DNA of 64,000 bases from Candidatus Saccharimonadota bacterium (GCA_034520885.1 JAXHNE010000005.1:77748-141747); one strand, 5' to 3'; shown: positions 12,670-47,508, counted from the stretch's first letter. Translations and numbers: made by a program. Notes: generated by a model from the sequence alone, not told the origin.

Positions 12670-12887
12670 AATCTTTTGAGTCGGCAAAAGATTGCAACAA
12701 AAGCCGACAGGCGGCTGCCCGGAACCGGACTGCCCGCAGAACATAAAACGAGTGTGCTTCCTGCGGGAACGACCCTAAAGGGCTCGGCCACGCTGCTTTA
12801 TCTAAAGCAGGCAGCTTAGGCTGTCCTCAAGCAATGACTCACTCGTTTTATGCCCTCCGAACAATCTGTCCGGGCAGAGCCTGGAAG
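12670..12887 (+). ncRNA. unclassified structured RNA, copy B
   Basis: Same cores as copy A. The long-range helix 12742-12754/12840-12852 replaces the copy A helix with an unrelated but complementary sequence. Confidence 0.65.
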
Positions 12888-12989
12888 CCAGGTGAACAAC
12901 TGCTCCAAAGCAGTTGTAACTATATAAAAAACAAGCTTGAAGCTTGTTTACTGGTTTTACCCGGATCACCCAATAAGTTTAAGCAGAGC

Positions 12990-13209
12990 TTGGAATTCCT
13001 TTGTCATTATTTCTCATCTTCATTCTTCAATTCTCATTCCCCGATCTGCCAACTACCACCCACTAACTTCCACCCCCCTAATCCCTATAACCTAGCCACT
13101 AAAACCTAAAACCTGCTTTTAACCTATGAACTATGAACCCAGAACTCTTTCCTCAATCCTCAATCCCCGATCTCCTATCTACTACCTACCAACTACGAAC
13201 TTCTAACTC
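12990..13209 (-). repeat. C-poor (minus-strand) word tract 3' of gene 13210-13800
   Basis: The plus strand is almost G-free, with CCATC, CTAAC and CTACC words. Confidence 0.7.
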
Positions 13210-13800
13210 CTACTCCGTCGTTTCAACGATTTTCCGTAAATCATCATACAGGTTGCTATAGACCTCTTTGTTGCTACTGGAACTCGAAGCTTCGTGGGCG
13301 GCTTGTAATTCGCCCTGGTATTCTTGAATCTCCTCGATTAACAGGGGAATGAATACTTCGTCGAACCGGCTGCGTTGTTCGGCCTGGGTGAGCGTCTCGT
13401 CCGTTTCGGTATCTTGGCCGGCGGCCAGTAGTTTGGAGGAAATATCTTGGTTTCTTTCGGCAATGGCAATAATATCCGCTTGGTCCGACAGCAAAGTGAG
13501 CCGCGTACCATTGGCCAGATTTTTGGCGTCCTGTCCGCGGGCTTTGTCGGTGCCGACTTCACTGACGCGTACCAGTTCGGTATGCATTTGGGCCAGGCGC
13601 AAGGTGCGTTCCGGCGAATCACCGCCGCTACCGCCGAAAATAAGCGAAAACAACATAATCACTACGAACAAAAGCACCGCTCCGCCACCGGCAACGATCA
13701 TAATGCGCCGTTTTTTACTCGGTCCTTGTTTGGTGGGCGCTCCGGACAAAAAAGAGTAATCCGGCTTGTTGTCACTCGGTTGCATAAGCATAAGTATCAA
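13210..13800 (-). CDS. hypothetical membrane-anchored protein
   Basis: 196 aa with a single TM segment (IMIVAGGGAVLLFVVIMLFSLIF). Confidence 0.5.
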   Translation of the reverse strand: MILMLMQPSDNKPDYSFLSGAPTKQGPSKKRRIMIVAGGGAVLLFVVIMLFSLIFGGSGGDSPERTLRLAQMHTELVRVSEVGTDKARGQDAKNLANGTRLTLLSDQADIIAIAERNQDISSKLLAAGQDTETDETLTQAEQRSRFDEVFIPLLIEEIQEYQGELQAAHEASSSSSNKEVYSNLYDDLRKIVETTE

Positions 13801-13912
13801 GTATCACGCCTCAAGTATCAAGAGCAAAACGCGAGCAATAGCTTGAACTCATGCCAAGAACGAACTACTAAATACTATCTACGAACTACTGTCCAGTGTA
13901 CACTGGAGTTAT

Positions 13913-16830: not shown

Positions 16831-17033
16831 GTTAGAGGGTAGAAGGTGGAAGTTGGAAGATGGTAGGTGGAAGGTGGAAGATGGCAAGCGACTTTGTCGC
16901 AATGGATGATAGGTGAGGATTAATAGGTAATAGGTGGTATGTGGGTGGAAGATGGAATTTGGAAGATAGAAGATGGAAGATGGTAGGTGGTAGGTGGAAG
17001 TTTGGGAAAAAGTAATAAGTAATAAGTAATAAG
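16831..17033 (+). repeat. C-free G/A/T word tract 3' of rpoD
   Basis: No C at 16831-16884 or at 16901-17033. Built from GGAAGATGG, GGTAGGTGG and GTAATAAGT words. The only interruption is the GCGAC-TTT-GTCGC hairpin. Confidence 0.85.
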
Positions 17034-17139
17034 CAAAAAGTAGAGTGTACTTCTACTCGACCCCCCTAACCTCCAACGTCTAACCTCGAGCCTCAAACAT
17101 CTAACTTCCACTCTGATCCTATGATATGATTTTAAGCGA

Positions 17140-20103: not shown

Positions 20104-20120
20104 TATACTGTTAGGTAATG
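20104..20120 (+). promoter_or_regulatory. -10 TATACT 8 nt before the polA ATG
   Basis: TATACT-gttaggta-ATG. Confidence 0.5.
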
Positions 20121-22775
20121 GGAGATAGTAAAAAGCCCAAGAAGTTAGCAATTATTGATGGTAAGTCCGTTTTTTACCGCGGATATTACGCCATGTCGCA
20201 GCTGGCGACCAAGGATGGCACGCCCACCGGCGGGGTGTTCGGCTTCGCCACCATGGCGCTGGAGGTGATCCGCAAACTAAAACCGGATTACGTGTGCGTG
20301 GCGTGGGACAAACCCAAAACCAATATCCGAAAACGCCTAGAGATTTATCCCGAATACAAAGCCGGCCGTAAACCCGCGCCACCGGATTTTTACGAACAAA
20401 TTCCCGTATTGCACGAGCTTTTGGAGGCCTTCGGGTGGCCGCTTTACGAACTGGACGATTACGAAGCCGATGACATTATGGGCGCGCTGGCCGTGCAAGC
20501 CCGCGAAAAGGGACTGCAAACTCTCCTGGTCACGTCCGACCTGGACATGCTTCAACTTATTAACGGCGGCGTTAAAGTCTTCGCACTTAAAAAAGGCCTT
20601 AGTAATATCGAACTGTTCAGCCCGGAAAGCTTTCAAGCCAAGTACGGGTTAAGAACCGATCAGTTTTTGGAACTAAAAGCATTGATGGGCGATAGCTCGG
20701 ATAACATTCCCGGCGCCGCCGGGATCGGTAAAAAGACGGCGACCGAACTGCTACAAAAATACGATACGATCGAAGGAATTTACGATAATTTAGAATTGAT
20801 CAAAGACAGTACCCGTAAAAAGTTGGAAGCGGACAAAGAAATGGTTCACTTGAGCAAAAAGCTGGCAAGTATCATGACGGACGCGCCGCTCAAACTGGAT
20901 CTCAAAGAAGTTGACGGCAGTAAAGCCGATCCGGAAAAGATCCGCGACATCCTCCAAAAACTGGAATTCAAAAGCCTGGTACGCCAGCTGCCGGAAGTCA
21001 TGCGAGTCGAGGAACACCACAACGACCCCGCGCAATTCGTTCACGACCCCAAAGCCAAAACCGTGTTAGTAGAATCGGACAAGGAATTAGATCAGCTAAA
21101 CAAAATAGGGAAGACCGCCTACGTGTTCGGTCGCTCCGCGGGCACGCACGGCCGCAAGCCGACTTGGCTACTACTAAGTGGTGACGGCAAAACCACCTAC
21201 GCCGTAAACTTACAAAAAATATCCGCCAAAGCTCTTAGCTCACAGCTCTCGGCTCTCAGCTCGGTAATCGGGTATAACGTCAAAAACGATCTGCAGATTT
21301 TCATTGAACTGGGATTACCGCTGCCGGAGGTGGCGCACGACGTACTTATCGGTTCGTTTTTAATTAACTGCCTGCGCCGGGAGCAGTCTCTCACCGAACT
21401 GGCCAGTGCGGACATTGGCTATGAAGGTTCGCCGCTGGAGGAGCTCAGCGACGACGAACTGGTGCAAAAAGCCGGGGAAATCATCGCCATTGTAAAGGCG
21501 CTACATAAAGACCAAGAAGCTTCGCTGAAAGATATGCCCAAAGTCGCCAAGCTGGCCCGGGAAATCGAATGGCCGGTTATTCCGGTGCTGGCGCGGATGG
21601 AGTACGAAGGTATCAAGCTAGACGTCGGTTACTTGGAAGCCTTTAACACCGAGCTGGAAGATCAAATCAGCGACTTGGAACAAGAAATTTACGGGCACGC
21701 CAACAAGGAATTCAACATCGGCTCGCCCGCGCAACTTTCTGAGGTGTTGTTTGATGGTCTAGGCCTACCCACCCAAAACATCAAAAAAGGGAAGAGTGCC
21801 TACTCTACCGCCGCCAGTGAGCTGGACAAATTACGCGGCCAGCACCCTATCATTGATTTGATTACTCAGTACCGCGAGGTCACCAAACTCAAAAGTACCT
21901 ACGTGGACACTTTACCCAAACAGGTGGACGATGATTCGCGGCTGCACACCACCTTCGCGCTTACCGTGGCGCAAACCGGGCGCTTGAGTTCTAACGATCC
22001 GAACTTACAAAATATTCCGGTACGCACGGACTTGGGCCGGCGGATTCGTACCGCCTTTACCGCCCGGCCGAAACACATGTTAATTAGCGCTGATTATTCA
22101 CAGTTCGAACTCCGCCTGGCCGCGTTTTTGGCGGGGGATAAAGAATTAATCAGGATGTTCAACGAAGGCGCGGACATTCACGCCGCCACCGCCGCGCAAG
22201 TGTACGGCCGCGAACCGGAAGACATTACCAAACAGATGCGCCGCGACGCCAAAGTCATTAATTTCGGGGTGCTGTACGGCATGAGCCCGCACGGGTTGGT
22301 GCAGGCCACCGGCATGACGTACGACGCCGCCAAAACCTATATCGACAAATACTTTCAACTGCGAAAACCCTTGCTGGAATACATGAATTCGCTTAAAGAA
22401 AAGGCCAAAACCGACGGCTACGTGGAAACGCTGTTCGGCCGCCGCCGACCCATGCCGGATATTAAATCCAGCAATTTCATGGTGCGCTCGGCCGCGGAAC
22501 GCGCGGCGATTAACATGCCGATTCAGGGCACGGAAGCCGATTTAATGAAAATGGCGATGGTCGCGGTAGACCGCGAGCTCAAAGCTCAAAGCTCAAAGCT
22601 GAAAGAACTGCCCAAACAGCTTTTGCAAATTCATGATTCCATTTTAGTGGAGTGCCACGAGGACGACGCCGAAGCCGTCGCCAAAGACTTAAAGCGAACT
22701 ATGGAAGGGGTGTATGAGCTGCCCGTCAAGCTAACGGTAGATACTACAATAGGTCGCAACTGGGGCGAACTGTAA
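20118..22775 (+). CDS. polA: DNA polymerase I
   Basis: 885 aa with a 5' nuclease N-terminus. Polymerase motif A ADYSQFELR, motif B RRDAKVINFGVLYG, motif C QIHDSILVE. Confidence 0.97.
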   Translation: MGDSKKPKKLAIIDGKSVFYRGYYAMSQLATKDGTPTGGVFGFATMALEVIRKLKPDYVCVAWDKPKTNIRKRLEIYPEYKAGRKPAPPDFYEQIPVLHELLEAFGWPLYELDDYEADDIMGALAVQAREKGLQTLLVTSDLDMLQLINGGVKVFALKKGLSNIELFSPESFQAKYGLRTDQFLELKALMGDSSDNIPGAAGIGKKTATELLQKYDTIEGIYDNLELIKDSTRKKLEADKEMVHLSKKLASIMTDAPLKLDLKEVDGSKADPEKIRDILQKLEFKSLVRQLPEVMRVEEHHNDPAQFVHDPKAKTVLVESDKELDQLNKIGKTAYVFGRSAGTHGRKPTWLLLSGDGKTTYAVNLQKISAKALSSQLSALSSVIGYNVKNDLQIFIELGLPLPEVAHDVLIGSFLINCLRREQSLTELASADIGYEGSPLEELSDDELVQKAGEIIAIVKALHKDQEASLKDMPKVAKLAREIEWPVIPVLARMEYEGIKLDVGYLEAFNTELEDQISDLEQEIYGHANKEFNIGSPAQLSEVLFDGLGLPTQNIKKGKSAYSTAASELDKLRGQHPIIDLITQYREVTKLKSTYVDTLPKQVDDDSRLHTTFALTVAQTGRLSSNDPNLQNIPVRTDLGRRIRTAFTARPKHMLISADYSQFELRLAAFLAGDKELIRMFNEGADIHAATAAQVYGREPEDITKQMRRDAKVINFGVLYGMSPHGLVQATGMTYDAAKTYIDKYFQLRKPLLEYMNSLKEKAKTDGYVETLFGRRRPMPDIKSSNFMVRSAAERAAINMPIQGTEADLMKMAMVAVDRELKAQSSKLKELPKQLLQIHDSILVECHEDDAEAVAKDLKRTMEGVYELPVKLTVDTTIGRNWGEL

Positions 22776-27716: not shown

Positions 27717-27852
27717 TACAATATCAGCAATGATTAAAGCCATTATTTTTGACCCGCGCACCAAAATCTTTGCGCTCCACAATCTGATTACGGACTATTG
27801 CGCCCGGGATTTGGTGCGGGGCAAGTCTTTTTGGGGTAAGTATGGCAATTAA
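27717..27852 (+). other. decoy HAD start (TACAAT-7nt-ATG) opening a 40-codon uORF through hairpin E2
   Basis: ATGATTAAAGCCATTATTTTTGAC at 27730 compares with the real ATGGCAATTAAAGCCATTATTTTTGAT at 27842. The uORF stop at 27850-27852 overlaps the real start region. Confidence 0.65.
27753..27821 (+). repeat. MITE-like hairpin element E2 (diverged family member)
   Basis: CCCGCGCACCAAAATC...GATTTGGTGCGGGG, with the shared internal CACAATCTGATT. Sits 20 nt upstream of the HAD ATG. Confidence 0.75.
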
Positions 27853-28408
27853 AGCCATTATTTTTGATTTCTTCGGGGTGATTTGTTCCGACCAGTACTG
27901 GAATTACGTTAAGGCCGACCGCCAATCGGCAGGCACGTTTCGGGAGTATGCCGAGGAAGTGAACCTGGGCGAAATGTCGTGGTCCGATTTCGTAGCTAAG
28001 ATCGCGCAGGCCACGCACACCTCGGTTGACGAAGTAAAGGAGCTATATCGCTCCGAACGCATTAATCCGCGTATGGCGGAATGGATCGCCGACCTGCACG
28101 GTCGCTACAAAACCGGGCTGATTACCAACGCGCATCACGAATTCATTGACCCGCTCCTGAAAAGAAGCCACCTGGCCAAACACCTGGATAGCGTGGTCGT
28201 GTCTTCTCGGCTGGGAGTAATAAAACCCGATCCGGCGATTTTTGAAGCCGCCTTGGAGGAGCTTGGCTGCGCGCCGGAGGAAGTGATATTCATGGATGAT
28301 CTGGATCGGCACGTGGAGGCCGCGCGGAAGGTTGGCATTCAAGCCTTCCGATTCGACGATTTTACGCGGGCCAAACAACGTGTAGACCGACTTTTAAATC
28401 ACACGTGA
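27842..28408 (+). CDS. HAD-superfamily hydrolase
   Basis: N-terminal IKAIIFDFFGVI, with LITNA and FMDDLDRHV blocks. Confidence 0.82.
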   Translation: MAIKAIIFDFFGVICSDQYWNYVKADRQSAGTFREYAEEVNLGEMSWSDFVAKIAQATHTSVDEVKELYRSERINPRMAEWIADLHGRYKTGLITNAHHEFIDPLLKRSHLAKHLDSVVVSSRLGVIKPDPAIFEAALEELGCAPEEVIFMDDLDRHVEAARKVGIQAFRFDDFTRAKQRVDRLLNHT

Positions 28409-28513: not shown

Positions 28514-28717
28514 ATGAATTTATACGAAATTGACGAGCCCGGTCGAGCACCAATGATTATTGGCGGTAGTGCGTTCGGGGTAGAAGACGCAAGGTATCTT
28601 CAGGAATCTATCAGAGAAGATGGACGGCGTCCCGAAGAAACCGTCGTAGGTATCGATACGCAAACGCTCGAACGGACACTTCCTGTCGCTGATCTTGCGA
28701 TCACACAATACGAATAA
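28514..28717 (+). CDS. hypothetical small protein
   Basis: 67 aa from ATG 28514, after AAAGGAAAAC. Confidence 0.4.
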   Translation: MNLYEIDEPGRAPMIIGGSAFGVEDARYLQESIREDGRRPEETVVGIDTQTLERTLPVADLAITQYE

Positions 28718-28940
28718 ATAAGCGCTTTTTTGTTTGACACATTTCTTTGAGCGTATGCAAATGCATACGAAGTGTGCCGGCCAAAGCGGCGCTGTCCACG
28801 ATGATCGTAATGCCGCGATCGTTCATTTTTACCAAGCAGTCGACACCGAACTCTTTGCGCACGAAGGATTTGATAATCTGAATTTCTTTGGGTTCGTGGA
28901 ATTCGCGGTTTCCTAAAATGTCAGCGACGGAATTACTCAT
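28701..28940 (-). CDS. DUF721/DciA-like small protein
   Basis: 79 aa. ITIIVDSAALAGTLRMHLHTLKE resembles the DUF721 core. Call is tentative. Confidence 0.45.
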   Translation of the reverse strand: MSNSVADILGNREFHEPKEIQIIKSFVRKEFGVDCLVKMNDRGITIIVDSAALAGTLRMHLHTLKEMCQTKKRLFIRIV

Positions 28941-29016
28941 ACCCCTCAGTGTAGCAGTGGATCAAACGGGGGAGAAGCGGGTACAATGGGAGCATGCCAG
29001 AACTACCGGAGGCTTG

Positions 29017-29082
29017 CCCCGCACCAACTCCTGAGCGGAGCAGTAAGCAATCAGATTGTGGAGCTTCAAGAGTTTGGTGCGG
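29017..29082 (-). repeat. MITE-like hairpin element E3a (inverted relative to E1, 1 mismatch in the core)
   Basis: CCCCGCACCAACTCC...GAGTTTGGTGCGG. Confidence 0.8.
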
Positions 29083-29102
29083 AATACATAGGGAGAATAA
29101 GT

Positions 29103-29219
29103 ATGCCAGAACTACCGGAGGCTTGCCCCGCACCAACTCCTGAGCGGAGCAGTAAGCAATCAGATTGTGGAGCTTCAAGAGTTTGGTGCGGAATACATAG
29201 GGAGAATAAGTATGCCTGA
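29103..29219 (+). other. decoy mutM start opening a 38-codon uORF through hairpin E3b
   Basis: MPELPEACPAPTPERSS.... The TGA at 29217-29219 overlaps the real ATG at 29212 (ATGCCTGA). Confidence 0.65.
29126..29191 (-). repeat. MITE-like hairpin element E3b
   Basis: Identical to E3a, 109 bp downstream. Sits 20 nt upstream of the mutM ATG. Confidence 0.8.
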
Positions 29220-30126
29220 ATTACCAGAGGTCGAAACGGTCAAAAGAGGCCTGGATCAGCTCATCGTTGGTAAGATTGTCGCTGACGTTACTTCCGACTG
29301 GGTAAAATCCTTTCCGAACGCCCAAACTGACGTAAACCAATTTTTAATGGGTGCAACCGTGCAGAAGTTACGCCGCCGTGGCAAGGCGTTGATTATTGAT
29401 CTGAATTCAAAGTATTCGCTCGTCATTCACTTGAAAATGACCGGACAGTTGGTTTTTGTTGGCCAACAAAAAAATGAGCAAAAAGCAAAAAGCAAAAAGC
29501 AAAAAGAGGTAAGATTTGGCGCGGGACATCCGACGGATAGCTTGGTAGGTGAACTGCCCGATAAGTCCACTCGCGTAACATTCACTTTTAAGGATAAATC
29601 TCGATTATTTTTTAACGATCAACGCAAATTTGGCTGGGTCAGACTACTCCCGACTATAGAAATTGAGAACCTGGACTTTATGAAAAAGCTAGGCCCAGAA
29701 CCATTGGAAAATGACTTTACGAACACAAAATTTGTTCAACGGCTACAACGCCGCAAAAACAGTGGTATAAAAGCCGTTTTATTGGATCAAACCGTGGTCG
29801 CGGGCGTTGGAAATATCTACGCGGACGAGTCGTTGTACGCCGCCAAAATCCATCCGGCAACGTTGGTAAAAGACGTTCCCCGGAACGAGTTAAAGGTACT
29901 TTTTAAAGAGCTTATAAAAGTTTTGCGCCGCGCCATAGAAAGTGGTGGCAGTACCGACAAAAACTACGTTGATGCCGAAGGTAAAAAGGGAAGTTATTTA
30001 ACATTCGCTAGGGTTTTCCGCCGGGAAGGCAAGGCGTGTGAACGCTGTGGTGATATCATCATAAAGACGAAAGTCGCCGGACGCGGCACCCACACGTGCC
30101 CGACTTGCCAAAGGAGCCACTCATGA
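29212..30126 (+). CDS. mutM: formamidopyrimidine-DNA glycosylase
   Basis: MPELPEVETVKRGL N-terminus, an H2TH region, and a zinc finger CERCG...CPTCQ. The real start is the third ATGCC(A/T)GAA copy. Confidence 0.95.
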   Translation: MPELPEVETVKRGLDQLIVGKIVADVTSDWVKSFPNAQTDVNQFLMGATVQKLRRRGKALIIDLNSKYSLVIHLKMTGQLVFVGQQKNEQKAKSKKQKEVRFGAGHPTDSLVGELPDKSTRVTFTFKDKSRLFFNDQRKFGWVRLLPTIEIENLDFMKKLGPEPLENDFTNTKFVQRLQRRKNSGIKAVLLDQTVVAGVGNIYADESLYAAKIHPATLVKDVPRNELKVLFKELIKVLRRAIESGGSTDKNYVDAEGKKGSYLTFARVFRREGKACERCGDIIIKTKVAGRGTHTCPTCQRSHS

Positions 30127-31732: not shown

Positions 31733-33784
31733 ATGGAAAATCAAAAAACAGAAGTAATCCAAACCATAAAAGACGCACAAAACGTGTTGGTTACCGTCAG
31801 CAAGGATCCTTCGATCGACCAACTGGCCGCGGCCATCGGTATGACGCTGATACTTAATAAAATGGGCAAACACGGCACGGCGGTGTTCAGCGGCACGGCG
31901 CCATCCACGTTAGAGTTTCTAAAACCGGAAGAAACACTGGAGAAGAACACCGACAGCCTACGGGATTTTATTATTTCGCTGGACAAATCCAAGGCCGACA
32001 AGCTGCGCTATAAAGTGGAAGACCAGCACGTAAAAATCTTCATTACCCCTTATCGTACGACGATTGGCGAGCAAGATTTGGTGTTTAGCCACGGTGATTT
32101 TAACGTTGACGTGGTATTGGCGCTCGGCGTGCACCAGCAAAACGAACTCGACCAGGCTATCACCGCTCACGGGCGGATTTTGCACGACGCCAAGATCGTG
32201 TCCGTAAATGCCGGCAAACCGGGCGAGCTCGGCGGAATTAACTTGAACGAACAAAACGTTAGTAGCTTGTCGGAAGTAATGGCCGACATGAGCTTGGAGA
32301 TTCAAAAAGACGTTTTTGATCAGCAGATCGCTACGGCGCTTCTAACGGGAATCGTGGCCGAGACCGAGCGGTTCAGTAACGAAAAAACCAAACCGGAAAC
32401 CATGTCGATTAGCGCCAAACTCATGGCCGCCGGTGCCAATCAGCAGTTAGTCGCTACTAAACTACAAGTCCAACCGGAGCCTTCGGAACCGACTCCACAA
32501 CAGGGGCAAGCCGAGCAAGCGGAAGGTGAAGGTAAAAATCCGAACGAATCGGCGGACTCCATTAAGCACGAGGACGGGTCTTTACAAATAAAGCACACCG
32601 AACCTCCAAAAAAGCAGCAAACGAGTGAACAATCACAAAATGCGGGCGACCCCCCGCAAAGCGACAATGAAGTCCACGTCGACGAAGAAGGCAATTTCAA
32701 ATCCGCGCACATGGACGAACTACCGCCCATAAAAACCGAAAATAAAGCCGGTACTTTGGAAAAGGAAGCCGGTACCAACGAACCTCCGAAAAACGACAAC
32801 GAGCCACTTAAACGCAAGCGCATGATTTTGGATCCGCCGTCCAGCGGCAGTACGCTCACTGCCAGTGGTAAGGACGAGCCGGAAGGCACCAGTGACCCGC
32901 TAAGCAAACCGGTAAACGAAGGGCCGATGCTCACGCACGACGATCAAAAGTCCCGGCCGCCGGAATCAGGTAATACGAATGATCAATCCACGCCACCAAA
33001 GGCGGCGGAGGCGCCCGCGGAAAACGCTCCGGCTCTCCCCAAAGCGGATAATCAAACACCGGGTAACTCTCCGACACCCGCTTCGAGCACGCCCAAGGAA
33101 CCCGAAGAAAACCCGAAAACGGCTCCGTCCGAGACATCGAAAGATACGTCAAAACAGCCGCTTAACGGAAACCAAACGCTTGATTCTTTGGAAAAACGCG
33201 TGGACAGCCCACACCAACACCAAACGGAGAAAAAAGCCCAAAGTCCGCCGGAACCACCGGCAACGAATAACCAACCTGGCGGCGGTGGTAAAGCCCCGGA
33301 TTCTTCGGATTCGGTCTCCGAAACGGCAAACCAGTCCGATACCGACAAAGCCGAAGCGCCGGATATCGGTCAATTGCAAAATGCCGTAGACAAAGCGCTG
33401 GCTAATTCCGGTGATCAAAAACCGCAGGAGCCAATTAAAGCCCTTAACGCCAACCCCGTGGATTTGGACTTAGGGCATGATGATCAGCAAAACGGCAATC
33501 AACCCGCCACCTCTGGCGATAATAGCGATGATGGCTACCTGGACGTCAATAAGTTGGACGAGCAAACCGGTCTGGAAAAGAGTTCATCCTCAGATCCGGC
33601 GCAACCCGAACAACCCCAAAACCAACAAAAACCGAAGTTTCCGCCGGATCCTAAACCCGCTCCGTCAACTGACGCCGCCTCGCCGGCTTCTTCGCCGCCG
33701 CCAGTACCGCCGCCGATGATGCCACCCAAGCAAGGTCAAGATGACAACGGCGACGATCTGAATTTGCCACCCGTACAGCGGTAG
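31733..33784 (+). CDS. NrnA/DHH-family-like protein with degenerate catalytic motifs, fused to a ~440-aa disordered tail
   Basis: The first ~240 aa align by eye to NrnA (ALLTGIVAETERFSN in place of TDTGxF; VSKDPSIDQLAAAIG in place of HxxPDGDxxGS). The rest is P/Q/E/S/N/K-rich. Confidence 0.6.
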   Translation: MENQKTEVIQTIKDAQNVLVTVSKDPSIDQLAAAIGMTLILNKMGKHGTAVFSGTAPSTLEFLKPEETLEKNTDSLRDFIISLDKSKADKLRYKVEDQHVKIFITPYRTTIGEQDLVFSHGDFNVDVVLALGVHQQNELDQAITAHGRILHDAKIVSVNAGKPGELGGINLNEQNVSSLSEVMADMSLEIQKDVFDQQIATALLTGIVAETERFSNEKTKPETMSISAKLMAAGANQQLVATKLQVQPEPSEPTPQQGQAEQAEGEGKNPNESADSIKHEDGSLQIKHTEPPKKQQTSEQSQNAGDPPQSDNEVHVDEEGNFKSAHMDELPPIKTENKAGTLEKEAGTNEPPKNDNEPLKRKRMILDPPSSGSTLTASGKDEPEGTSDPLSKPVNEGPMLTHDDQKSRPPESGNTNDQSTPPKAAEAPAENAPALPKADNQTPGNSPTPASSTPKEPEENPKTAPSETSKDTSKQPLNGNQTLDSLEKRVDSPHQHQTEKKAQSPPEPPATNNQPGGGGKAPDSSDSVSETANQSDTDKAEAPDIGQLQNAVDKALANSGDQKPQEPIKALNANPVDLDLGHDDQQNGNQPATSGDNSDDGYLDVNKLDEQTGLEKSSSSDPAQPEQPQNQQKPKFPPDPKPAPSTDAASPASSPPPVPPPMMPPKQGQDDNGDDLNLPPVQR

Positions 33785-33843
33785 TTGTTAGAAGTTAGAA
33801 GTTAGTTGTTAGAAGTTGGAAGTTAGAAGATGGAAGATAAGAT
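33780..33843 (+). repeat. C-free GTTAGAAG word tract 3' of the NrnA-like gene
   Basis: 64 nt without C, followed by the hairpin GAAGATA-AGATC-TATCTTC. Confidence 0.8.
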
Positions 33844-33958: not shown

Positions 33959-34702
33959 ATGTTTGACGGACTGTTATTAATAGATAAGGAAAAAGGCTGG
34001 ACGAGCCACGACGTAGTAGCCAAAATCCGTGGCGCTCTGCGCCACGAGCTAAAAGCTCGTAGCCAGTCAACGGACAACGCTCAACAAACAACGCCGGCCA
34101 AGCGTCGGGTGAAGGTGGGTCATACGGGAACGCTCGACCCGGCCGCAACCGGTTTATTAGTGCTCGTGGTCGGCAGCTATTGCAAGCGGGCACAAGAGTT
34201 CTCCAAGCTGGACAAAACCTACGAAGTCACCATGAAGTTGGGCTACACCTCGACCACCGGCGATAGCGAAGGCGTTATTAGTAAAAAGCAAAACGTAAAA
34301 AGCAAAAAACCGACAGAACAGGATTTAAGGCGGGTATGCGCCGATTTTATGGGTGAAATCAAACAAACGCCGCCGGCTTATAGCGCGGTAAAAGTAAACG
34401 GCCAGCGGGCTTATGCGCTTGCTCGCGCCGGAAAAGAAGTAAACCTAGAACCCAGAAAAGTGACTATCTATCAACTATCAATTACCAACTATGCTTACCC
34501 AGAGGTACGTTTCACTTGCCGGGTAAGTAGCGGCACCTACATTCGTAGTTTGGTAGAAGATATCGGCGAAAAACACGGAACCGGCGCCTACATGACGGAT
34601 TTAAGACGCCTACGCGTCGGCTCGTTCGACCTGAAAGACGCGTACACGGTTGACCAGCTGCAAAACAAGCCAATTAGAGAAATTTTGAAGGCAACGGTAT
34701 GA
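33959..34702 (+). CDS. truB: tRNA pseudouridine(55) synthase
   Basis: GLLLIDKEKGWTSHDVV and VGHTGTLDPAATGLLVL (catalytic Asp). Confidence 0.95.
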   Translation: MFDGLLLIDKEKGWTSHDVVAKIRGALRHELKARSQSTDNAQQTTPAKRRVKVGHTGTLDPAATGLLVLVVGSYCKRAQEFSKLDKTYEVTMKLGYTSTTGDSEGVISKKQNVKSKKPTEQDLRRVCADFMGEIKQTPPAYSAVKVNGQRAYALARAGKEVNLEPRKVTIYQLSITNYAYPEVRFTCRVSSGTYIRSLVEDIGEKHGTGAYMTDLRRLRVGSFDLKDAYTVDQLQNKPIREILKATV

Positions 34703-41627: not shown

Positions 41628-42457
41628 TTCTAATTTTTGTACATTGCTAACATCGGCTTTCAGTTGAGCAGGACTAATAACAAAACAACTGTTTAATACC
41701 TGTTTTTCAACTTGCCTGTTTGCAATACGTTTCCATTTTCAGACCTATTATAATACCATCGGCATCATCAACCCTATAGTCGGTAAGGTCGCCATTTACC
41801 ACGTTATAGCCACTATATTGAGCAGGTAATTCACTTTCTTTTTTGACATCGAATACCGTTGCTACATTGTGACCACGTTCAAGCATTGCTTCACATGAGT
41901 TCCAGTTCCTGCCTGTGTATGAGAGACGTTAAGTGGTAGTTAGGTGCAAGGTTATTGAATTTATTGGCGTTTTTCGTATAGTCGTAAAACTGTACATCAG
42001 GAAATATTTCGAAAATGTTTTGACCGTTAACTCTAACATTTTCCCAGTCGATATCCGAAGTACAATTTAATCTAACTGAAAAGAAATAACCATCTTTTTG
42101 TGCTTTTACCTGTTTTGCTTCGATATCAGCAATAAGCCACTGCATAAAAAATTCAGGTTGTTCATAAAACAATTTAGTTTTTTTGATACGTGCATTTAAG
42201 ATAGTGCATTTACCGCTAAACTCTTCAACGGCAACCCTACCGCTTGTATTTAAGCAACCCATACGGCATTCAGGTGTGCTATGTGAACACGTATTATAAC
42301 CACTTGTTTTGGCGGGTGCAAGGTGTAAGCCGTAGGTATACTGGTTGCTTACCTACCGCTTTTAAGCAGTTTTGCGCTTGCATTGATACTACCTAAATAG
42401 GGATAAACCTGTTTGTCTTTTTGCGTCTGCGATACTCTTAAAATTCATTGCTTTCAT
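41613..42457 (-). CDS. GP88-family phage protein, reading frame interrupted >=4 times
   Basis: Pieces in three frames read MKAMNFKSIADAKRQTGLS / YLGSINASAKLLKSG / VSNQYTYGLHLAPAKTSGYNTCSHSTPECRMGCLNTSGR... / EAMLERGHNVATVFD...VNGDLTDYRVDD. Confidence 0.6.
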
Positions 42458-42483
42458 TGTGTTATGGTTTTGGTTATGGTTAT

Positions 42484-42510
42484 TATACGAAAATAAGTTG
42501 TAATAGTTAC
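42484..42510 (-). promoter_or_regulatory. cassette promoter GTAAC-N16-CGTATAAT
   Basis: Drives the GP88-family gene (ATG 42457). Confidence 0.6.
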
Positions 42511-42576
42511 ATCTTAATTAAAATCTTTTTGGTTATTTACAATTTATTTTCGTGTGTGTCTGTGTGTGATAGTTAT

Positions 42577-42603
42577 TATACGAAAATAAGGTGTGAAAGT
42601 TAC
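42577..42603 (-). promoter_or_regulatory. cassette promoter GTAAC-N16-CGTATAAT, tandem to the previous
   Basis: No ORF before the next promoter, about 95 bp downstream. Confidence 0.5.
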
Positions 42604-42612
42604 GACCTGTGC

Positions 42613-42695
42613 TTATTTAGAACGGTTCTAAACTCAGAGTATCGGGTAGGGTTGCGATTACCGCACTGAGGTTATACCCTCCGTTGTTGTCTTAT
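42613..42695 (-). ncRNA. promoter-driven small RNA candidate, copy 1
   Basis: About 80 nt between a cassette promoter and the hairpin TTTAGAA-CCG-TTCTAAA. No ORF. Homologous to copy 2. Confidence 0.5.
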
Positions 42696-42701
42696 ACTTA
42701 T

Positions 42702-42728
42702 TATACGAAATAAATTAAAAAAGGTTAC
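42702..42728 (-). promoter_or_regulatory. cassette promoter driving small RNA copy 1
   Basis: -35 lies in the 3' arm of the hairpin AAGGTTGCG-AAAAA-CGTAACCTT. Confidence 0.6.
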
Positions 42729-42756
42729 GTTTTTCGCAACCTTTTTTAATTAAAAT

Positions 42757-43068
42757 CTAAACTTCTAATTCAAATACGCATTCCAGCATCAACTCAATTT
42801 CTTCACCCTCTGTTATCCATTTGTCGATTTGTTTCATGGTATAGCCATAAGCCATACAAGCATCAAGGATTTCACGATAACTGTAATCATCGTAGTCCAT
42901 TTCCTGCTCAAATACTTCGGTTTCCCCTGTTAAGGGGTCGATACAACGGTCTTCACGAAAAGCATATGTTTTGTCTTCAATGATTTCTTTTCGCATTTGG
43001 TTACAACTGGGGTCAGTTACTACCCAACCGTCTTGTTCCAGTTTTTTGATTTCGTCTTTTGTTGTCAT
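42757..43068 (-). CDS. hypothetical small acidic protein
   Basis: 103 aa with its own cassette and terminator. Confidence 0.55.
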   Translation of the reverse strand: MTTKDEIKKLEQDGWVVTDPSCNQMRKEIIEDKTYAFREDRCIDPLTGETEVFEQEMDYDDYSYREILDACMAYGYTMKQIDKWITEGEEIELMLECVFELEV

Positions 43069-43093
43069 TGCTTTGTGTTTTGGTTATAGTTAT

Positions 43094-43121
43094 TATACGT
43101 AAAAACCCCTGCAAAGGTTAC
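43094..43121 (-). promoter_or_regulatory. cassette promoter GTAAC-N17-CGTATAAT
   Basis: -35 lies in the loop of the CCCCTG/CAGGGG terminator hairpin. Confidence 0.65.
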
Positions 43122-43149
43122 ACTTCACAGGGGTTTTAATTAAAATCTT

Positions 43150-43365
43150 TTACTTAATCATTGGAATGTAATTCATTACTTCCAGTACTGCGTCTTCATC
43201 TTCCTCTGAAAGGTCAACGCTGAATACGTCTTCTGACTTGTCACAGGGTTGAACATCAAATTGCCAATCACTGTTTTTATCCTGCAACCATTTCTGAATT
43301 TCTTTTGCTGCTTCGAGCGGACTATCCGCATCGACTTCGATTTCCAATACTACTCTGTTTGTCAT
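43150..43365 (-). CDS. hypothetical small acidic protein
   Basis: 71 aa with its own cassette. Confidence 0.55.
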   Translation of the reverse strand: MTNRVVLEIEVDADSPLEAAKEIQKWLQDKNSDWQFDVQPCDKSEDVFSVDLSEEDEDAVLEVMNYIPMIK

Positions 43366-43393
43366 AATTTTTGTGTGTTTTGGTTATAGTTAT

Positions 43394-43420
43394 TATACGA
43401 TATTAATTAAAAAAGGTTAC
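43394..43420 (-). promoter_or_regulatory. cassette promoter GTAAC-N16-CGTATAAT
   Basis: Drives 43150-43365. Confidence 0.65.
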
Positions 43421-43427
43421 GTTTTAA

Positions 43428-43459
43428 ATAAAAAAACCCCCGTGTAACCAGCACGGGGG
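43428..43459 (-). terminator. intrinsic terminator
   Basis: CCCCCGTG-CTGGTTA-CACGGGGG followed by T7. Confidence 0.8.
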
Positions 43460-43504
43460 CATAACCCATAACCATAAATCACAATCAAATATTTTAAATT
43501 TCGT

Positions 43505-43825
43505 CTACAACGGCTCGGAAACCACCTTCATCTTCTCTATACATTTGGAGTTTGGGTGAAAAACTCTTACAAGATGACCGTTTATTTGTGTGTAGTATCC
43601 GAAGTAACTACCGTCTGTTAGAATATCGGTTTTATTTTTCTTTAAATACGTTATAAAATCTTCTTCTTTGTCTCCAAGTGGATAACCAGTTTCGTGTTCG
43701 ACTTTCAATTCGCTGAACGGAATTGTTCTCGGACTCAGATTCTTTGTGGTTTTGGTTATCCTGATAGCGAATCTACCAAAGGGTTCTAACTTGAATTCCT
43801 GTGATTTTGTTAATGTGATTTCCAT
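43505..43825 (-). CDS. hypothetical phage protein
   Basis: 106 aa with its own cassette and a strong terminator. Confidence 0.55.
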   Translation of the reverse strand: MEITLTKSQEFKLEPFGRFAIRITKTTKNLSPRTIPFSELKVEHETGYPLGDKEEDFITYLKKNKTDILTDGSYFGYYTQINGHLVRVFHPNSKCIEKMKVVSEPL

Positions 43826-43850
43826 CGCTTTGTGTTTTGGTTATAGTTAT

Positions 43851-43877
43851 TATACGAATAATTTCAGTCAGGGTTAC
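43851..43877 (-). promoter_or_regulatory. cassette promoter GTAAC-N16-CGTATAAT
   Basis: Drives 43505-43825. Confidence 0.65.
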
Positions 43878-43923
43878 ACACCCATGAGTTTTAATTTTTG
43901 ACCTGAATTAAATGGGTCATAAA

Positions 43924-44082
43924 TTACAGGTCTTTGTCATCATCGAAGTTCTGTTCTAAGTATGAACTATCAATAGTAAACATTCCACCTGATTGCTCAT
44001 GCTTAAAAACGGACATTGATACTTCTGCCTTTGTGTCGGGGTCTGTTACTGTGATTTCCTGTACGAATTTTGCTGTGTTCAT
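43924..44082 (-). CDS. hypothetical small protein
   Basis: 52 aa (MNTAKFVQEITVTDPDTKAEV...). Below the ORF-track cutoff. Confidence 0.4.
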   Translation of the reverse strand: MNTAKFVQEITVTDPDTKAEVSMSVFKHEQSGGMFTIDSSYLEQNFDDDKDL

Positions 44083-44104
44083 TGCTTTGTGTTTTAATTA
44101 AAAC

Positions 44105-44353
44105 TTAACTATGATAATCAATTCCATCGGTATTCATACCTGTACAATCGGCTTTCTTTTCATAGTCCAGAAGAAATGACCAATGCATTGCAGGTAGTTC
44201 TTCATCATTCTGTGCTTTGAAATAATCAGGCACGGAATAATAGGTTGTTTCTTCACACTCTACAATTTCTTCGTAGGTGCTTGATTGGTCGATACCATTA
44301 CCTGTTTCGGTTGGCACGACTGCTACTCTTAAATCTCTTAAGTCTGGGTTCAT
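44105..44353 (-). CDS. hypothetical small acidic protein
   Basis: 82 aa with its own cassette. Confidence 0.55.
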   Translation of the reverse strand: MNPDLRDLRVAVVPTETGNGIDQSSTYEEIVECEETTYYSVPDYFKAQNDEELPAMHWSFLLDYEKKADCTGMNTDGIDYHS

Positions 44354-44379
44354 TGCTTTGTGTTTTGGTTATAGTTATT

Positions 44380-44406
44380 ATACGAAAAAACCCCTGAAAG
44401 GTTACG
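44380..44406 (-). promoter_or_regulatory. cassette promoter GTAAC-N16-CGTATAAT
   Basis: -35 lies inside the CCCCTG/CAGGGG hairpin (44392-44418). Confidence 0.65.
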
Positions 44407-44431
44407 TTATTCAGGGGTTTTAATTAAAATC

Positions 44432-44709
44432 TTATCTTCTTTCGTAGTACAGTTTCCTGATTTTCCATAAATGGTCTTCGGTGTAATCTTTACCCATTAC
44501 CTTATTATAGAATTTCAGAGCAGGAAGTAAATCATTGACGTTCTTCTCGCCTTCGTAGTCTGTGAACCCATCTGAACTAAACGTATAGTCCAGAATATCA
44601 ACTGCTGCAAGTAGACAAGCCACAACAAGCAGGTCATAAGGTTTACGTGCTGTCTTACAGAAATTCCAACGGCTGTCTTCATTGATTCTGTCAATGAAAA
44701 ATGTTTCAT
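44432..44709 (-). CDS. hypothetical protein, one frame break
   Basis: ORFs 44515-44709 and 44432-44623 overlap in different frames. ATG 44709 lies 3 nt after the upstream stop. Confidence 0.4.
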
Positions 44710-44712
44710 GGT

Positions 44713-44973
44713 CTAAATCACGTTCGGCATTCCCATTAAACCAGACCGCATCTGCTGTGAATTCGGGTTCGTTATCTCCCTGACCACCTCGGATTTCGAG
44801 AGGGTCATCTGAACAATAACCACCTGCTGTATCTGTGGTTTTGGGTAGTTCGCCATGTAATTTTCTACATGCTTTTGAGAATTCCTTAAAGTCTTCTTTA
44901 GTATTCTCGGCTTTTGGTATCCAATAATGTGTGTATCCGATAATTGTAACGCCCTTTTGGGGTCGCCCTCCAT
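44713..44973 (-). CDS. hypothetical phage protein
   Basis: 86 aa with its own cassette. Confidence 0.5.
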   Translation of the reverse strand: MEGDPKRALQLSDTHIIGYQKPRILKKTLRNSQKHVENYMANYPKPQIQQVVIVQMTLSKSEVVREITNPNSQQMRSGLMGMPNVI

Positions 44974-45006
44974 TTTTTGGTTAATAATTTGGTTTCTTAT
45001 ACTTAT

Positions 45007-45034
45007 TATACGATATTAATTAAAAAAAGGTTAC
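45007..45034 (-). promoter_or_regulatory. cassette promoter GTAAC-N17-CGTATAAT
   Basis: Drives 44713-44973. Confidence 0.6.
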
Positions 45035-45071
45035 GTTATTCATGGGTTTTTTTAATTAAAATCTTTGTACA

Positions 45072-45275
45072 TTAGTCTTCATCCTCTTCATTATTTGTAA
45101 TCTCAATATCATCATCATCAATTGCACTAACGAAGATTTGTGGTTGTTCATCACTAAACCTTTGCTGTAAAACTGTGTTGATTTCTTCAAGCATATCTAA
45201 TGCCGTGTGTTTGTCTGCTCCATCATCGAAACTATCAAACTGAATTTGAATGTTTTTTACGATTATTGATTTCAT
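45072..45275 (-). CDS. hypothetical small, very acidic protein
   Basis: 67 aa ending in NNEEDED, with its own cassette. Confidence 0.55.
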   Translation of the reverse strand: MKSIIVKNIQIQFDSFDDGADKHTALDMLEEINTVLQQRFSDEQPQIFVSAIDDDDIEITNNEEDED

Positions 45276-45300
45276 TGTGTTTGGTTTTGGTTATAGTTAT

Positions 45301-45327
45301 TATACGTGTTTTAATTAAAAAGGTTAC
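45301..45327 (-). promoter_or_regulatory. cassette promoter GTAAC-N16-CGTATAAT
   Basis: The upstream gene's stop codon lies inside the -35 (ACG TAA CC). Confidence 0.65.
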
Positions 45328-45630
45328 GTTTTTAACCTGATTTGATTTTCATAAATAAAACCCTCATCATTCTCATTGTCGTAAAACTCCAAATCGTTAG
45401 CCACAAATACAGGAATATTACCATGCCAATCGTAAACTGGTGAGGCTTTGCAGTATGTTCTGGTCACCCTTACAATAACAATTGGATAGGGTTTATGTCT
45501 TGCGCCATTGTCGGGATGAATCGTTCTGACATCCAGAACCTCACCCTCACGCCATTCGTTAAGGTTCTCATTTCTGGGGTTGTTGATTAACACCTCAACG
45601 ACATCACCCTTTATAATTTTTTAGTTTCAT
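45324..45630 (-). CDS. hypothetical protein, frame break near the start
   Basis: ATG 45630 gives MKLKNYKG, then an extra G, then DVVEVLINNPRNENLNEW.... Confidence 0.45.
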
Positions 45631-45655
45631 TGTGTTTGGTTTTGGTTATAGTTAT

Positions 45656-45682
45656 TATACGAAAAAACCCTGCAAAGGTTAC
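45656..45682 (-). promoter_or_regulatory. cassette promoter GTAAC-N16-CGTATAAT
   Basis: -35 lies in the CCCTG/CAGGG hairpin. Confidence 0.65.
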
Positions 45683-45800
45683 AGGGTTTTTAATTAAAAT
45701 CTATATATTATTCTCATATTATTTTATCTATAGTGTGTCTTAGGGCGAACCTTTGTTTAGCGTTTCCATCGTTTACGGTTTTAATTAAAATCTCTATACA

Positions 45801-46007
45801 TTAGTCTTCTCTGACTTCGACATTATCTGCATCGACTTCGAATGCTTCTCCGCATTGGTCTTCGACAATCACCGTGCCACGGGATTCCAGAATACCATCT
45901 TTTACAATGATTCCGACAAAACTGTGATTATGCATATCACTTTTTCTGGGTGCTCCGACTTCAACTGTTTGGAATTCTTCGAGTAGTGTGCCTGTTTTTT
46001 CTAACAT
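45801..46007 (-). CDS. hypothetical small protein
   Basis: 68 aa. Confidence 0.5.
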   Translation of the reverse strand: MLEKTGTLLEEFQTVEVGAPRKSDMHNHSFVGIIVKDGILESRGTVIVEDQCGEAFEVDADNVEVRED

Positions 46008-46025
46008 GATTTTTGGTTTTAATGA

Positions 46026-46238
46026 TTATACGATATAGAACATTGTTGTTTCAGTGAATTGTTCACTAACTACGATTTTTGTCAGACCCACATTTTCGTT
46101 TTCCACTGGTGAAATGAAGCCATTTTCTGCCCTATCACTTAACGCTGATAAAGTGTTTTCAACAACTTCTTTAATCTCTTCGTCATCAGTGATTTTGTTG
46201 TCGAATTCAAGACTAACTACTAATTGAATTGTTTTCAT
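46026..46238 (-). CDS. hypothetical small acidic protein
   Basis: 70 aa. Confidence 0.5.
   Translation of the reverse strand: MKTIQLVVSLEFDNKITDDEEIKEVVENTLSALSDRAENGFISPVENENVGLTKIVVSEQFTETTMFYIV
46027..46052 (-). promoter_or_regulatory. cassette promoter variant GAAAC-N15-CGTATAAT
   Basis: The -10 overlaps the upstream stop (ATC GTA TAA). Confidence 0.45.
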
Positions 46239-46264
46239 GATTTCTGTGTTTTGGTTATAGTTAT

Positions 46265-46291
46265 TATACGAACAATATCTGAAAAGGTTTC
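46265..46291 (-). promoter_or_regulatory. cassette promoter variant GAAACC-N16-CGTATAAT
   Basis: Drives 46026-46238. Confidence 0.55.
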
Positions 46292-46365
46292 AGTTTATGG
46301 ACATTATATCAATAAAAAACCCCACAATATTGTTGCAGGGTTTTGTTTAGGACATTGTGTTGTTG

Positions 46366-47250
46366 TTAATCCTCAACTCTTTTGATGATGAACAATAACG
46401 TCTTTACCCTTGTATCTTTGTAGGGAAACTTAACCACAATCTCATAACCTGCATTGCTGTTAACTAAAAAGTTAACCAAGTCATTTGTTACTTCTGCCCC
46501 AGTTGGTTCTTTACCAGCATAACAGTTTTTGATATACTTATTACTATAACTGTTCATGCGGAGCGAATGATTTAAAACCCTGTCATTTTCTGATAGTGTT
46601 AAGGTAATGTACCCACCTTTTTTAACTAAATTGCGTTTCATCACATCATTGATTTCATCATAAAAAGTGTCGATGAAACCGCAGTAATCCAAAATAGCAC
46701 TACTATATGTGTCTTCGGCATCATTCACAATATGTTCACCAACGGTTTTGTTACGTAGTGGAAATAACTGAATCAAATAACTTGTCATTAGCCGTCAGAT
46801 TCCTAACCATTTCCTTATAGGTTTCTTTGTCACGTTCAACCGCAGTGAATTTATAACCACTTTTTTGTTTGAGGATGTTTTTCTCCATTATCCATTCAGC
46901 AGCAGGTAAGGTCAGGATATTACTACTTTGCCGTTTGGTTAACATAATTGATTCAGCAATTAATTGCCTTGCCTTATCTTTGGCTTTTCCATGATAATTA
47001 CTAAAAGTGTTTTTTGCTTCTTTTAACACGTTTTACTGGCTTCTTAGGTGCTTTTTTGGTTGTTGTCCCGTTTGCGGAATTAAGTGCTCTGGCTATCGCA
47101 TTTACTTGCCTAAATGAAGGCAAACCAAGAAGTTCAGCCAATTCGTTGTTGTCCATACTATCATAGTTTTCAATAATAGTATCAATCATTTTAGTTGTTC
47201 TGCCGTCAGTTAATTTAACGCCTTTGTACTTTTCAATTGTCTGTTGTCAT
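46366..47250 (-). CDS. ~295-aa protein in >=4 frame pieces (weak methyltransferase-like resemblance)
   Basis: ORFs 47001-47189, 46751-47029 and 46366-46788 overlap end to end. ATG 47250 follows the cassette. Confidence 0.35.
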
Positions 47251-47297
47251 GGTGTTTGTGATTTTGGTTAAACAATTTGTTTGTTGGTTATGGTTAT

Positions 47298-47324
47298 TAT
47301 ACGACACACACACGCAAAGGTTAC
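47298..47324 (-). promoter_or_regulatory. cassette promoter GTAAC-N16-CGTATAAT
   Basis: Drives the gene starting at 47250. Confidence 0.6.
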
Positions 47325-47356
47325 ACTATATGAAATATAATTTTAATTAAAACGAG

Positions 47357-47438
47357 TTATTTAGAACCATTCTAAACTCAGGATATAAGGTAGGGTCGGA
47401 TTACCGCACTGAGATTTTACTCTCCGTTGTTGTTGTTA
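47357..47438 (-). ncRNA. promoter-driven small RNA candidate, copy 2
   Basis: Shares CTCAGTGCGGTAATC, CCCTACC and CTGAGTTTAGAA. Helix GAGA/TCTC here corresponds to GAGG/CCTC in copy 1. Confidence 0.5.
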
Positions 47439-47444
47439 TACTTA

Positions 47445-47471: not shown

Positions 47472-47508
47472 CATTTCTGCAACCCTTTTTTAATTAAAAT
47501 CTTAATTC

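Follow-up and report, generated by a model that had tools for sequence, protein, structure and literature searches.

A dispersed palindromic element inside the first codons of mutM and other Saccharibacteria genes, probably a selfish repeat tolerated through coupled upstream reading frames

Why should the start of mutM be written three times in a row, with a hairpin between each copy and the next? The question is raised by a stretch of 64,000 nucleotides from a Candidatus Saccharimonadota bacterium (GCA_034520885.1, JAXHNE010000005.1:77748-141747; "the window" below is this whole stretch), in which the mutM gene is preceded by two 109-nt units, each made up of a decoy of the gene's first codons, a palindromic element and a linker. 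We find that this arrangement recurs at the starts of other genes in Saccharibacteria, and that its hairpin is a dispersed element. The reading that we hold to be probable is that the 109-nt unit is built around a selfish palindromic repeat of the MIRU or RPE kind, tolerated by way of a coupled upstream open reading frame (uORF), and that the unit was recently duplicated at mutM by slippage.

The region opens with a TACAAT hexamer (28982-28987, plus strand, as are all features of this region), the presumed -10 box of the ancestral leaderless mutM promoter, 6 nt upstream of the first decoy ATG. The first decoy (ATGCCAGAACTACCGGAGG, encoding MPELPE; 28994-29012) is followed by a first copy of the palindromic element in forward orientation (29014-29086; 88 bits with our covariance model R1, predicted folding energy -29 kcal/mol, z = -3.8) and by a linker (29087-29102) with a Shine-Dalgarno (SD)-like GGGAG 7 nt 5' of the next ATG. 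Then come a second decoy (29103-29121), a second element that equals the first in sequence (29123-29195, again found by the covariance model) and a second linker (29196-29211) with the same GGGAG. All 109 nt are identical between 28994-29102 and 29103-29211, and GGGAGAATAAGT is present at 29091-29102 and again at 29200-29211. A third, partial copy, beginning at 29212, is the true mutM start and differs from the decoys at offsets 5, 9 and 14, where all three codon changes (CCA/CCT, CTA/TTA and CCG/CCA) are synonymous. The gene itself (29212-30126) encodes a 304-residue Fpg with the N-terminus MPELPEVE and the domains Fapy_DNA_glyco, H2TH and zf-FPG; its product is 100% identical to a protein from a Candidatus Saccharibacteria metagenome-assembled genome (MAG) at NCBI. 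Tandem Repeats Finder reports a period of 109, 2.2 copies and a score of 453, by far the top tandem repeat in the window. A simple sigma-70 scan of 28700-29400 returned no two-hexamer promoter, and promoters here would appear to consist of a -10 box only.

The two decoys open reading frames with different fates. The uORF from the first (28994-29143, 49 aa) passes the second ATG and stops at a TGA (29141-29143) within hairpin 2, away from any start codon; it misses the real start because each unit shifts the frame by one (109 = 36x3+1). The uORF from the second (29103-29219, 38 aa) stops at a TGA (29217-29219) inside ATGCCTGA, overlapping the real start, and in the two-unit state it is only this SD-led uORF that ends on mutM. 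A preliminary description of the locus had reported the -10 box and the spacing of the decoys, the exactness of the repeat, a hairpin after each decoy, the SD-like sequence ahead of the following ATG, the three synonymous differences at the real start and the inability of the decoys, in an out-of-frame unit of 109 nt, to extend MutM, and every one of these points is borne out. Its statement that the uORF from 29103 terminates on the real start is likewise correct; the different fate of the first uORF was not part of it.

Is the tandem repeat real? The window derives from a short-read MAG, the element recurs at 97% identity elsewhere in the same genome, and no contig in an independent assembly spans the mutM repeat, all of which would suit an artefact of assembly, whether a collapsed or expanded repeat or a chimera with the near-identical copy near 10.6 kb. 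We nevertheless judge such an artefact to be very improbable. The independent assembly consists of Logan k=31 contigs from run SRR26473340, the same sample and genome as the window, and two of these contigs match the window without mismatch, one (12 kb) ending at 29023 and another beginning at 29187. In a de Bruijn simulation, two or more units produce breaks exactly after the 31-mer 28993-29023 and before 29187-29217, the last and first 31-mers containing bases that tell the upstream-to-unit and unit-to-real-start junctions from the unit-to-unit junction, whereas a single unit predicts breaks at 29044 and ~29031 instead. The observed ends equal the prediction for two or more units and no other, hence the unit-to-unit junction exists in the reads, and the copy number at mutM is at least two. 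Another lineage, represented by three ENA scaffolds, also has decoy, hairpin and real start arranged in this way at its mutM. There, in the scaffold L027, a single unit sits at the same mutM nucleotide as the window module. Because this second lineage has one unit, the tandem state is best supported as a recent, lineage-specific amplification, as the preliminary description had proposed; every other site known to us also has one unit. The mutM module would have been duplicated once in this genome. Slippage is the likely cause, or unequal exchange, acting between the decoy start and the real one; the two are identical at 16 of 19 positions and have an exact ATGCC in common. This event would have left the leaderless first decoy uncoupled and the SD-led second decoy coupled to mutM.

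A second repeat lies within mutM itself, a perfect heptanucleotide array, (AGCAAAA)x4.3, at 29477-29506. It encodes a Lys-rich loop insertion of ~12 aa that is missing from the MutM of two syntenic relatives (L017 and L018), and mutM would go out of frame if the array grew or shrank by one 7-nt unit, which makes the array a possible slippage switch. With two slippage-prone repeats, the 109-nt unit and this array, mutM could be a reversible mutator switch.

The hairpin is a ~72-nt palindromic element found at 12 sites in about nine Saccharibacteria genomes, with four copies at three sites in the window and the others in about eight further genomes or metagenomes. Its ends (CCCCGCACCAA...TTGGTGCGGGG) are terminal inverted repeats that pair as the outer stem, and its loop (AATCAGATTGTG) is conserved. 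In an alignment of 11 sequences, five stem pairs show double compensatory changes in a total of 14 cells, a level reached in none of 500 shuffles, and sliding the stem alignment as a control lowers the paired fraction from 94% to 30-40%. Both strands, and both orientations, fold stably (-28 to -38 kcal/mol, z from -3.5 to -6). Both window copies outside mutM are inverted: that at 10642-10714 is 97% identical to the mutM copies, with unrelated flanks, and that at 27752-27824 is 81% identical, with compensating changes. Four of the six reading frames are open through the element in nearly all copies.

Pattern scans located the element at five loci of Saccharibacteria MAGs and at three of metagenomes, the remaining matches being chance occurrences in other phyla, and a decoy reading frame from a protein library led to three further ENA scaffolds (L027-L029) that carry it. 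These scans demanded the loop AATCAGATTGTG exactly, and variants such as that of L027 (AATCAGATTATG) escaped them, so the family must be larger than counted. Searches of the window and of 109 kb from related loci with the covariance model yielded no additional copies, and a scan of viral contigs with the element pattern gave no matches. A protein search with 31 concatenated element-encoded peptides returned nothing at E <= 10, probably because the query was short and repetitive, and neither the 49-aa decoy frame nor a reading frame at the edge of the window had an entry when looked up. Rfam had no match at gathering score in the window or in eight loci, and around the repeat none with E below 5; a known RNA family was rejected on this account. 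Also rejected were a tRNA or tmRNA identity and, for lack of a U-tract after the hairpin, an intrinsic terminator. No description of the repeat family was found in Rfam or in the literature searched. In two genomes, Logan k=31 contigs stop within or beside the element (L026 in SRR16798008; L016 and L024 in SRR26473340), and ends of this kind may mark additional copies.

Several copies lie outside gene starts. At one locus (L013) the element is an in-frame insert of 24 codons (VPHQNLSAAVGNQIVEHQVFGAGL) in rnhB (14-655, plus strand), and the alignment of the encoded RNase HII splits exactly at the insert, between the residues matching positions 60 and 67. At another (L007) the element lies in the P3 stem-loop of the SAM-I riboswitch that precedes metK (7320-7467, minus strand). 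RF00162 aligns there over its full length at 35.4 bits (E = 1.8e-6), interrupted at the P3 loop by an insert of 53 nt, and this insert alone keeps the match below the Rfam gathering score. A third copy (L011) lies between convergent genes, directly after the mutM stop codon, and a fourth (L003) is in a 5' leader. None of the first three is flanked by a duplication. Both orientations, varied contexts, a patchy distribution and the 97% identity of copies with unrelated flanks lead us to read the element as, apparently, a selfish mobile repeat whose survival in a compact genome is limited to sites where it does no damage.

These same contexts bear on whether the hairpin is instead a leader dedicated to regulating mutM or a stress regulon, for example an attenuator, an RNA thermometer or a site for a protein or small RNA. 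Such a role would agree with the invariant loop, with the retention of ~80% nucleotide identity in the element between lineages whose proteins are 65-70% identical, and with hosts that include dnaJ, ychF and mutM, all stress-related. It agrees poorly with an element that occurs in both orientations relative to the gene, that has copies in frame in rnhB, in a riboswitch P3 and after a mutM stop, that is missing from close relatives, and that has neither a match in Rfam nor a U-tract behind it. We consider a regulatory leader unlikely.

The layout seen at mutM is found at eight gene-start sites: mutM twice (L027-L029 and the window), ychF twice (L001 and L005, two MAGs), dnaJ twice (L008 and L012), a HAD hydrolase and an RNase T-family exonuclease. 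In each, a decoy of the gene's first 4-18 codons comes first, then the hairpin, which may face either way, then a linker, SD-like in most cases, and last the real start; in the counts below, the second, coupled unit stands for the window mutM site. Two of the eight are further modules in the window, both on the plus strand, that the preliminary description did not include. The HAD hydrolase module (27717-27867) begins with TACAAT-N7 and a decoy ATG at 27730 (MIKAIIFD; uORF to 27852), continues with the inverted element at 27752-27824 and a linker with GGGGTAAGT, and ends in the real start at 27842 (MAIKAIIFDFFGV); an independent Logan contig spans this site with zero mismatches. The module of the RNase T-family (Orn-like) exonuclease, orn below (10576-10745), has TATACT-N7, a decoy ATG at 10589 (18 codons; uORF to 10723), the inverted element at 10642-10714, a linker with GGGTAAAGCT and the real start at 10728, the decoy peptide being MKKTEKLPEKLFWVDLGM and the real one MKKNNKLPTKLFWVDLEM. 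The preliminary description had attributed the multiplied mutM start to the tandem repeat; the tandem is exact, as claimed, and the duplication of the start is the standard layout of the dispersed element.

Measured from the first nucleotide of the real start codon, the decoy stop begins at -7 to +8 nt at seven of the eight sites (the eighth, L027, has it at +20), with overlaps that include ATGA, GTGA, ATGCCTGA and ATGGCTAA. Of 44 ordinary starts of window genes put through the same reading test, 15 have a stop in that interval, so that a result of 7/8 is unlikely by chance (roughly 3 in 1000), and the stop-on-start geometry to which the preliminary description had drawn attention is meaningful. 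An SD-like core (GGAG, GAGG, AGGA or GGGG) stands 5-8 nt 5' of the real start at 7/8 sites. No decoy is in frame with its gene (0/8), and an in-frame N-terminal extension by the decoy was rejected on these grounds. A strict TAnnnT stands 6-7 nt ahead of the decoy ATG at four of the eight sites, as it does in unit 1 of mutM, which is leaderless, and a relaxed -10-like hexamer precedes the decoy at two more; the dnaJ decoy of L012 has its own SD in front. Only at L027 does the module adjoin the stop codon of the gene before it (TAG followed at once by ATG). Orthologous modules differ in length by multiples of three, 116 versus 113 nt at ychF and 112 versus 103 nt at dnaJ, differences of 3 and 9 nt that preserve the decoy frame. 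The real ATG or GTG is kept at all eight sites. Gene callers risk choosing the wrong start at such modules or annotating decoys as genes, and one decoy (P0241) is already called as a gene in public data.

Just 5' of the dnaJ decoy in L008 (~7735-7765, reverse strand) we read by eye a CIRCE-like inverted repeat (TAGCACTC-N10-GAGTGCTAA). The usual heat-shock operator thus appears to be retained ahead of the dnaJ module at this locus.

If the decoy were itself the true N-terminus, joined to the gene body by programmed bypass or frameshifting of the T4 gene 60 type, the conservation of its amino acids would be explained; the hairpin does stand where take-off would have to occur, and the final codon of the decoy equals its counterpart in the real gene. 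Yet no stop or rare codon follows the take-off site, the decoy frame stays open for 30+ codons through the element, and the gap of 103-139 nt is far beyond known hops. The real start codon and the N-terminal codons after it are conserved, with the SD at 7/8 sites, and the orn decoy has a Gly where the real DLEMTGL motif has its Glu, a catalytic residue in DEDD exonucleases. We find bypass scarcely credible.

Relatives without the element indicate what preceded it. In the syntenic L017 and L018, whose MutM is 77-79% identical to that of the window in pairwise alignment (74-75% in the search listing), the element-free mutM begins with TAGAAT-N7-ATG and TACAAT-N9-ATG and has no SD. The HAD gene of both begins with TACACT-N7-ATG encoding MIKA..., resembling the window decoy, and the ychF of the closest L005 relatives (80% aa identity) is likewise element-free, visibly leaderless in one of them. 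In the window, TAnnnT-N6-8-ATG is frequent at the first genes of transcription units, and internal genes have SD-like sites. These comparisons support the suggestion, made in the preliminary description, that a leaderless gene was turned into one with a hairpin-plus-SD leader. A graded series of one insertion could not be built, the closest YchF and MutM (74-75%) relatives being without the element.

A scenario that accommodates these features is as follows. The element sits within the coding start, 12-54 nt in, of a gene that was once leaderless. Upstream of it are the old promoter and a short decoy of the first codons, and downstream of it a short, usually SD-like linker and a complete second start, from which the protein is made. 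Transcription would still begin at the old leaderless ATG, now the decoy, and ribosomes would read the decoy frame straight through the hairpin and terminate on or beside the real start. The real gene would then be expressed by termination-reinitiation, by unfolding of the hairpin, or by both, helped by the SD-like linker, in line with published accounts of coupled gene pairs, and with its expression coupled in this way the insertion would do little harm.

Several observations weigh against this selfish, coupled repeat. On the side of expression, we infer the transcription start, the translation of the decoy and its coupling from sequence. At L027, the decoy stop lies as far as +20 and there is no clear SD. 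The predicted fold leaves the SD and start of the real mutM unsequestered (z = -1.2 for the whole region), so coupling may be dispensable, an aid rather than a necessity. Mobility and its mechanism are likewise suggested by distribution only: there is no fixed short target duplication, the flanking duplications being 12-54+ nt and confined to gene starts, and no transposase turned up, though none was looked for and only part of the window reading frames were scanned. At mutM and ychF the element is at the same nucleotide in distant lineages and absent from nearer relatives, which would suit an ancient conserved feature lost in some lineages no less than a site-specific mobile element. Lastly, the decoys diverge from the real starts as coding sequence does. 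Over all sites 51 nt and 36 codons differ, of which 29 are synonymous and seven nonsynonymous; simulated neutral decay of the decoys gives on average 76% nonsynonymous changes and never less than 52%, with none of 5,000 runs as extreme as the data. A mere relic that needs only to start translation should not diverge in this way.

The coding-like signal is seen at individual sites, too. All five decoy codons of L027 differ, all synonymously, as do seven of the eight of L005, including TCT versus AGC for serine; decoys compared with each other across lineages are also coding-like (five synonymous and no nonsynonymous differences at mutM). This makes it doubtful, if conceivable, that the decoy is a target-site duplication from the insertion itself, by staggered cuts or template switching, that has decayed neutrally and is seen at gene starts for the reason that only start-regenerating insertions survive. 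The compact genome, which tolerates few other sites, would favor such an origin, as would the HAD duplication, identical over 20/20 nt. The mutM and HAD linkers, moreover, resemble the promoter region 5' of the decoy (TACAATGGGAG versus TACATAGGGAG), so that the duplication may begin at the -10 box; this homology is suggestive at those two genes and not so at orn or ychF. The variable length of the duplications (12 to 54+ nt), their absence from the rnhB, riboswitch and intergenic copies, and the synonymous bias just described all count against it. So does the uncoupling of flank from element divergence: at orn, a 97% identical element lies between flanks that are 27% diverged, and at HAD an 81% identical element lies between identical ones.

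An alternative to which we give tentative weight is that the coding histories of the decoy and of the real start are distinct, the module having been made or reshaped by recombination with a diverged relative, with the hairpin serving as an illegitimate joint, or that the decoy peptide has been under selection in place. Either would yield coding-like divergence, and the shared mutM and ychF position in distant lineages, with closer relatives lacking the element, is in keeping with it. The nonsynonymous changes at orn fall mostly at positions that look variable in this single comparison, and genes of the Type IV pilus/competence type adjoin ychF in L025. On the other hand, partners with differences at almost all synonymous sites have diverged too far to be anchored by homology, the identities of neighboring genes give no clear outlier and no sign of transfer, and no known function constrains the N-terminal residues of decoys from five unrelated proteins. 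That the decoy is a working part of the module and no relic is a speculative possibility, and not one we favor. Its N-terminal peptide, the same as the host protein's, would then be maintained by selection where it stands, or else diverged alleles would recombine at the hairpin and so rebuild the module again and again. If true, the recombination version would mean that an element of 72 nt "homes" by recombination into the opening codons of housekeeping genes.

If the selfish repeat tolerated through coupling is the right reading, it shows how selfish DNA can reside among the opening codons of a housekeeping gene and leave the gene alive: the former leaderless start turns into a uORF that delivers ribosomes, and the gene acquires a second start. 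It would bear on how leaderless genes gain leaders and SD sites, and on whether ribosomes delivered by uORFs are a general mechanism of tolerance beyond the mycobacterial MIRUs. The element itself adds a repeat family from the little-studied, genome-reduced Saccharibacteria of the candidate phyla radiation.

Other repeats are plentiful in the window. Arrays of 7-nt tandem repeats with three to eight units occur at 9468-9623, 13017-13166, 13792-13889, 16833-17042, 21230-21262, 22576-22605, 33782-33838 and 34280-34308, two 7-nt arrays being inside an 885-aa reading frame (20118-22775), and 9538-9623 is 87% reverse-complementary to 16854-16939 over 86 nt. A pair of 98-nt direct repeats, 71% identical (9339-9436 and 12792-12889), starts with the small palindrome GCTGCTTTATCTAAAGCAGGCAGC. 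From 36000 to 64000 the window has about 36% GC, versus about 50% in its first 36 kb, and this AT-rich island holds small reading frames on the minus strand that have no Pfam match; one reading frame, 41891-42262 (minus strand), matches the phage family GP88. A ~57-nt promoter/terminator-like repeat (TTTTGGTTATAGTTATTATACG...AAAGGTTAC) occurs there in at least 21 copies (42454-50447). The island is probably a prophage or other integrated element.

Among known systems, the closest in layout are the MIRUs, which, according to two published sources (PMC12548453; PMC3184786; original description by Supply et al. 1997), insert at start codons with a coupled reading frame. The Saccharibacteria modules share with them short dispersed repeats (~40-100 bp), a host with many leaderless genes, the position at a start codon and a reading frame through the repeat whose stop overlaps the downstream start, so that insertion is cheap. 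The two tandem units at the window mutM may have their counterpart in the tandem arrays of MIRUs (variable number tandem repeats). The polycistronic overlap of the frame's start with the upstream stop is approached at L027 only, where the module begins at the upstream stop codon, and is not seen at the other sites. The hosts belong to different phyla, and the likeness drawn here is one of layout. In Saccharibacteria, furthermore, the unit is a long covarying hairpin in either orientation, and the start of the uORF is not part of the repeat; it is a duplicated host gene start, usually with a leaderless promoter, that evolves like coding sequence.

The RPEs (PMC10969869; Ogata et al. 2000) are palindromic selfish repeats of about 105-150 bp. 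Like the element studied here, they inhabit small compact genomes, are open in several frames and interrupt housekeeping genes in frame (for our element, the rnhB of L013); they are not reported to duplicate gene starts or to act as coupled uORFs, and there is no sequence relationship. Like the element, Correia elements, ERIC and REP-BIME are hairpin repeats transcribed together with the genes near whose ends they lie, and such repeats can change how an mRNA is processed and expressed, one example being the cleavage of Correia hairpins by RNase III (PMC10969869). They are extragenic, however, bring no decoy start, and come with either a short target duplication of fixed length (TA for Correia) or a RAYT. 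The Neisseria REP2 and Borrelia IR-A,B repeats (PMC3184786) also lie immediately 5' of genes and bring translation signals; REP2, however, holds its own promoter, ribosome binding site and ATG within the repeat, whereas the Saccharibacteria linkers vary by site and the promoter and decoy start are host-derived. A classical miniature inverted-repeat transposable element would share the terminal inverted repeats and would differ in its short target duplication of fixed length. The stop after the take-off codon and the dispensable downstream start of T4 gene 60 have no counterpart here. The element is thus distinct from both MIRU and RPE in its long covarying hairpin, in its independence of orientation and, above all, in its host-derived decoy start.

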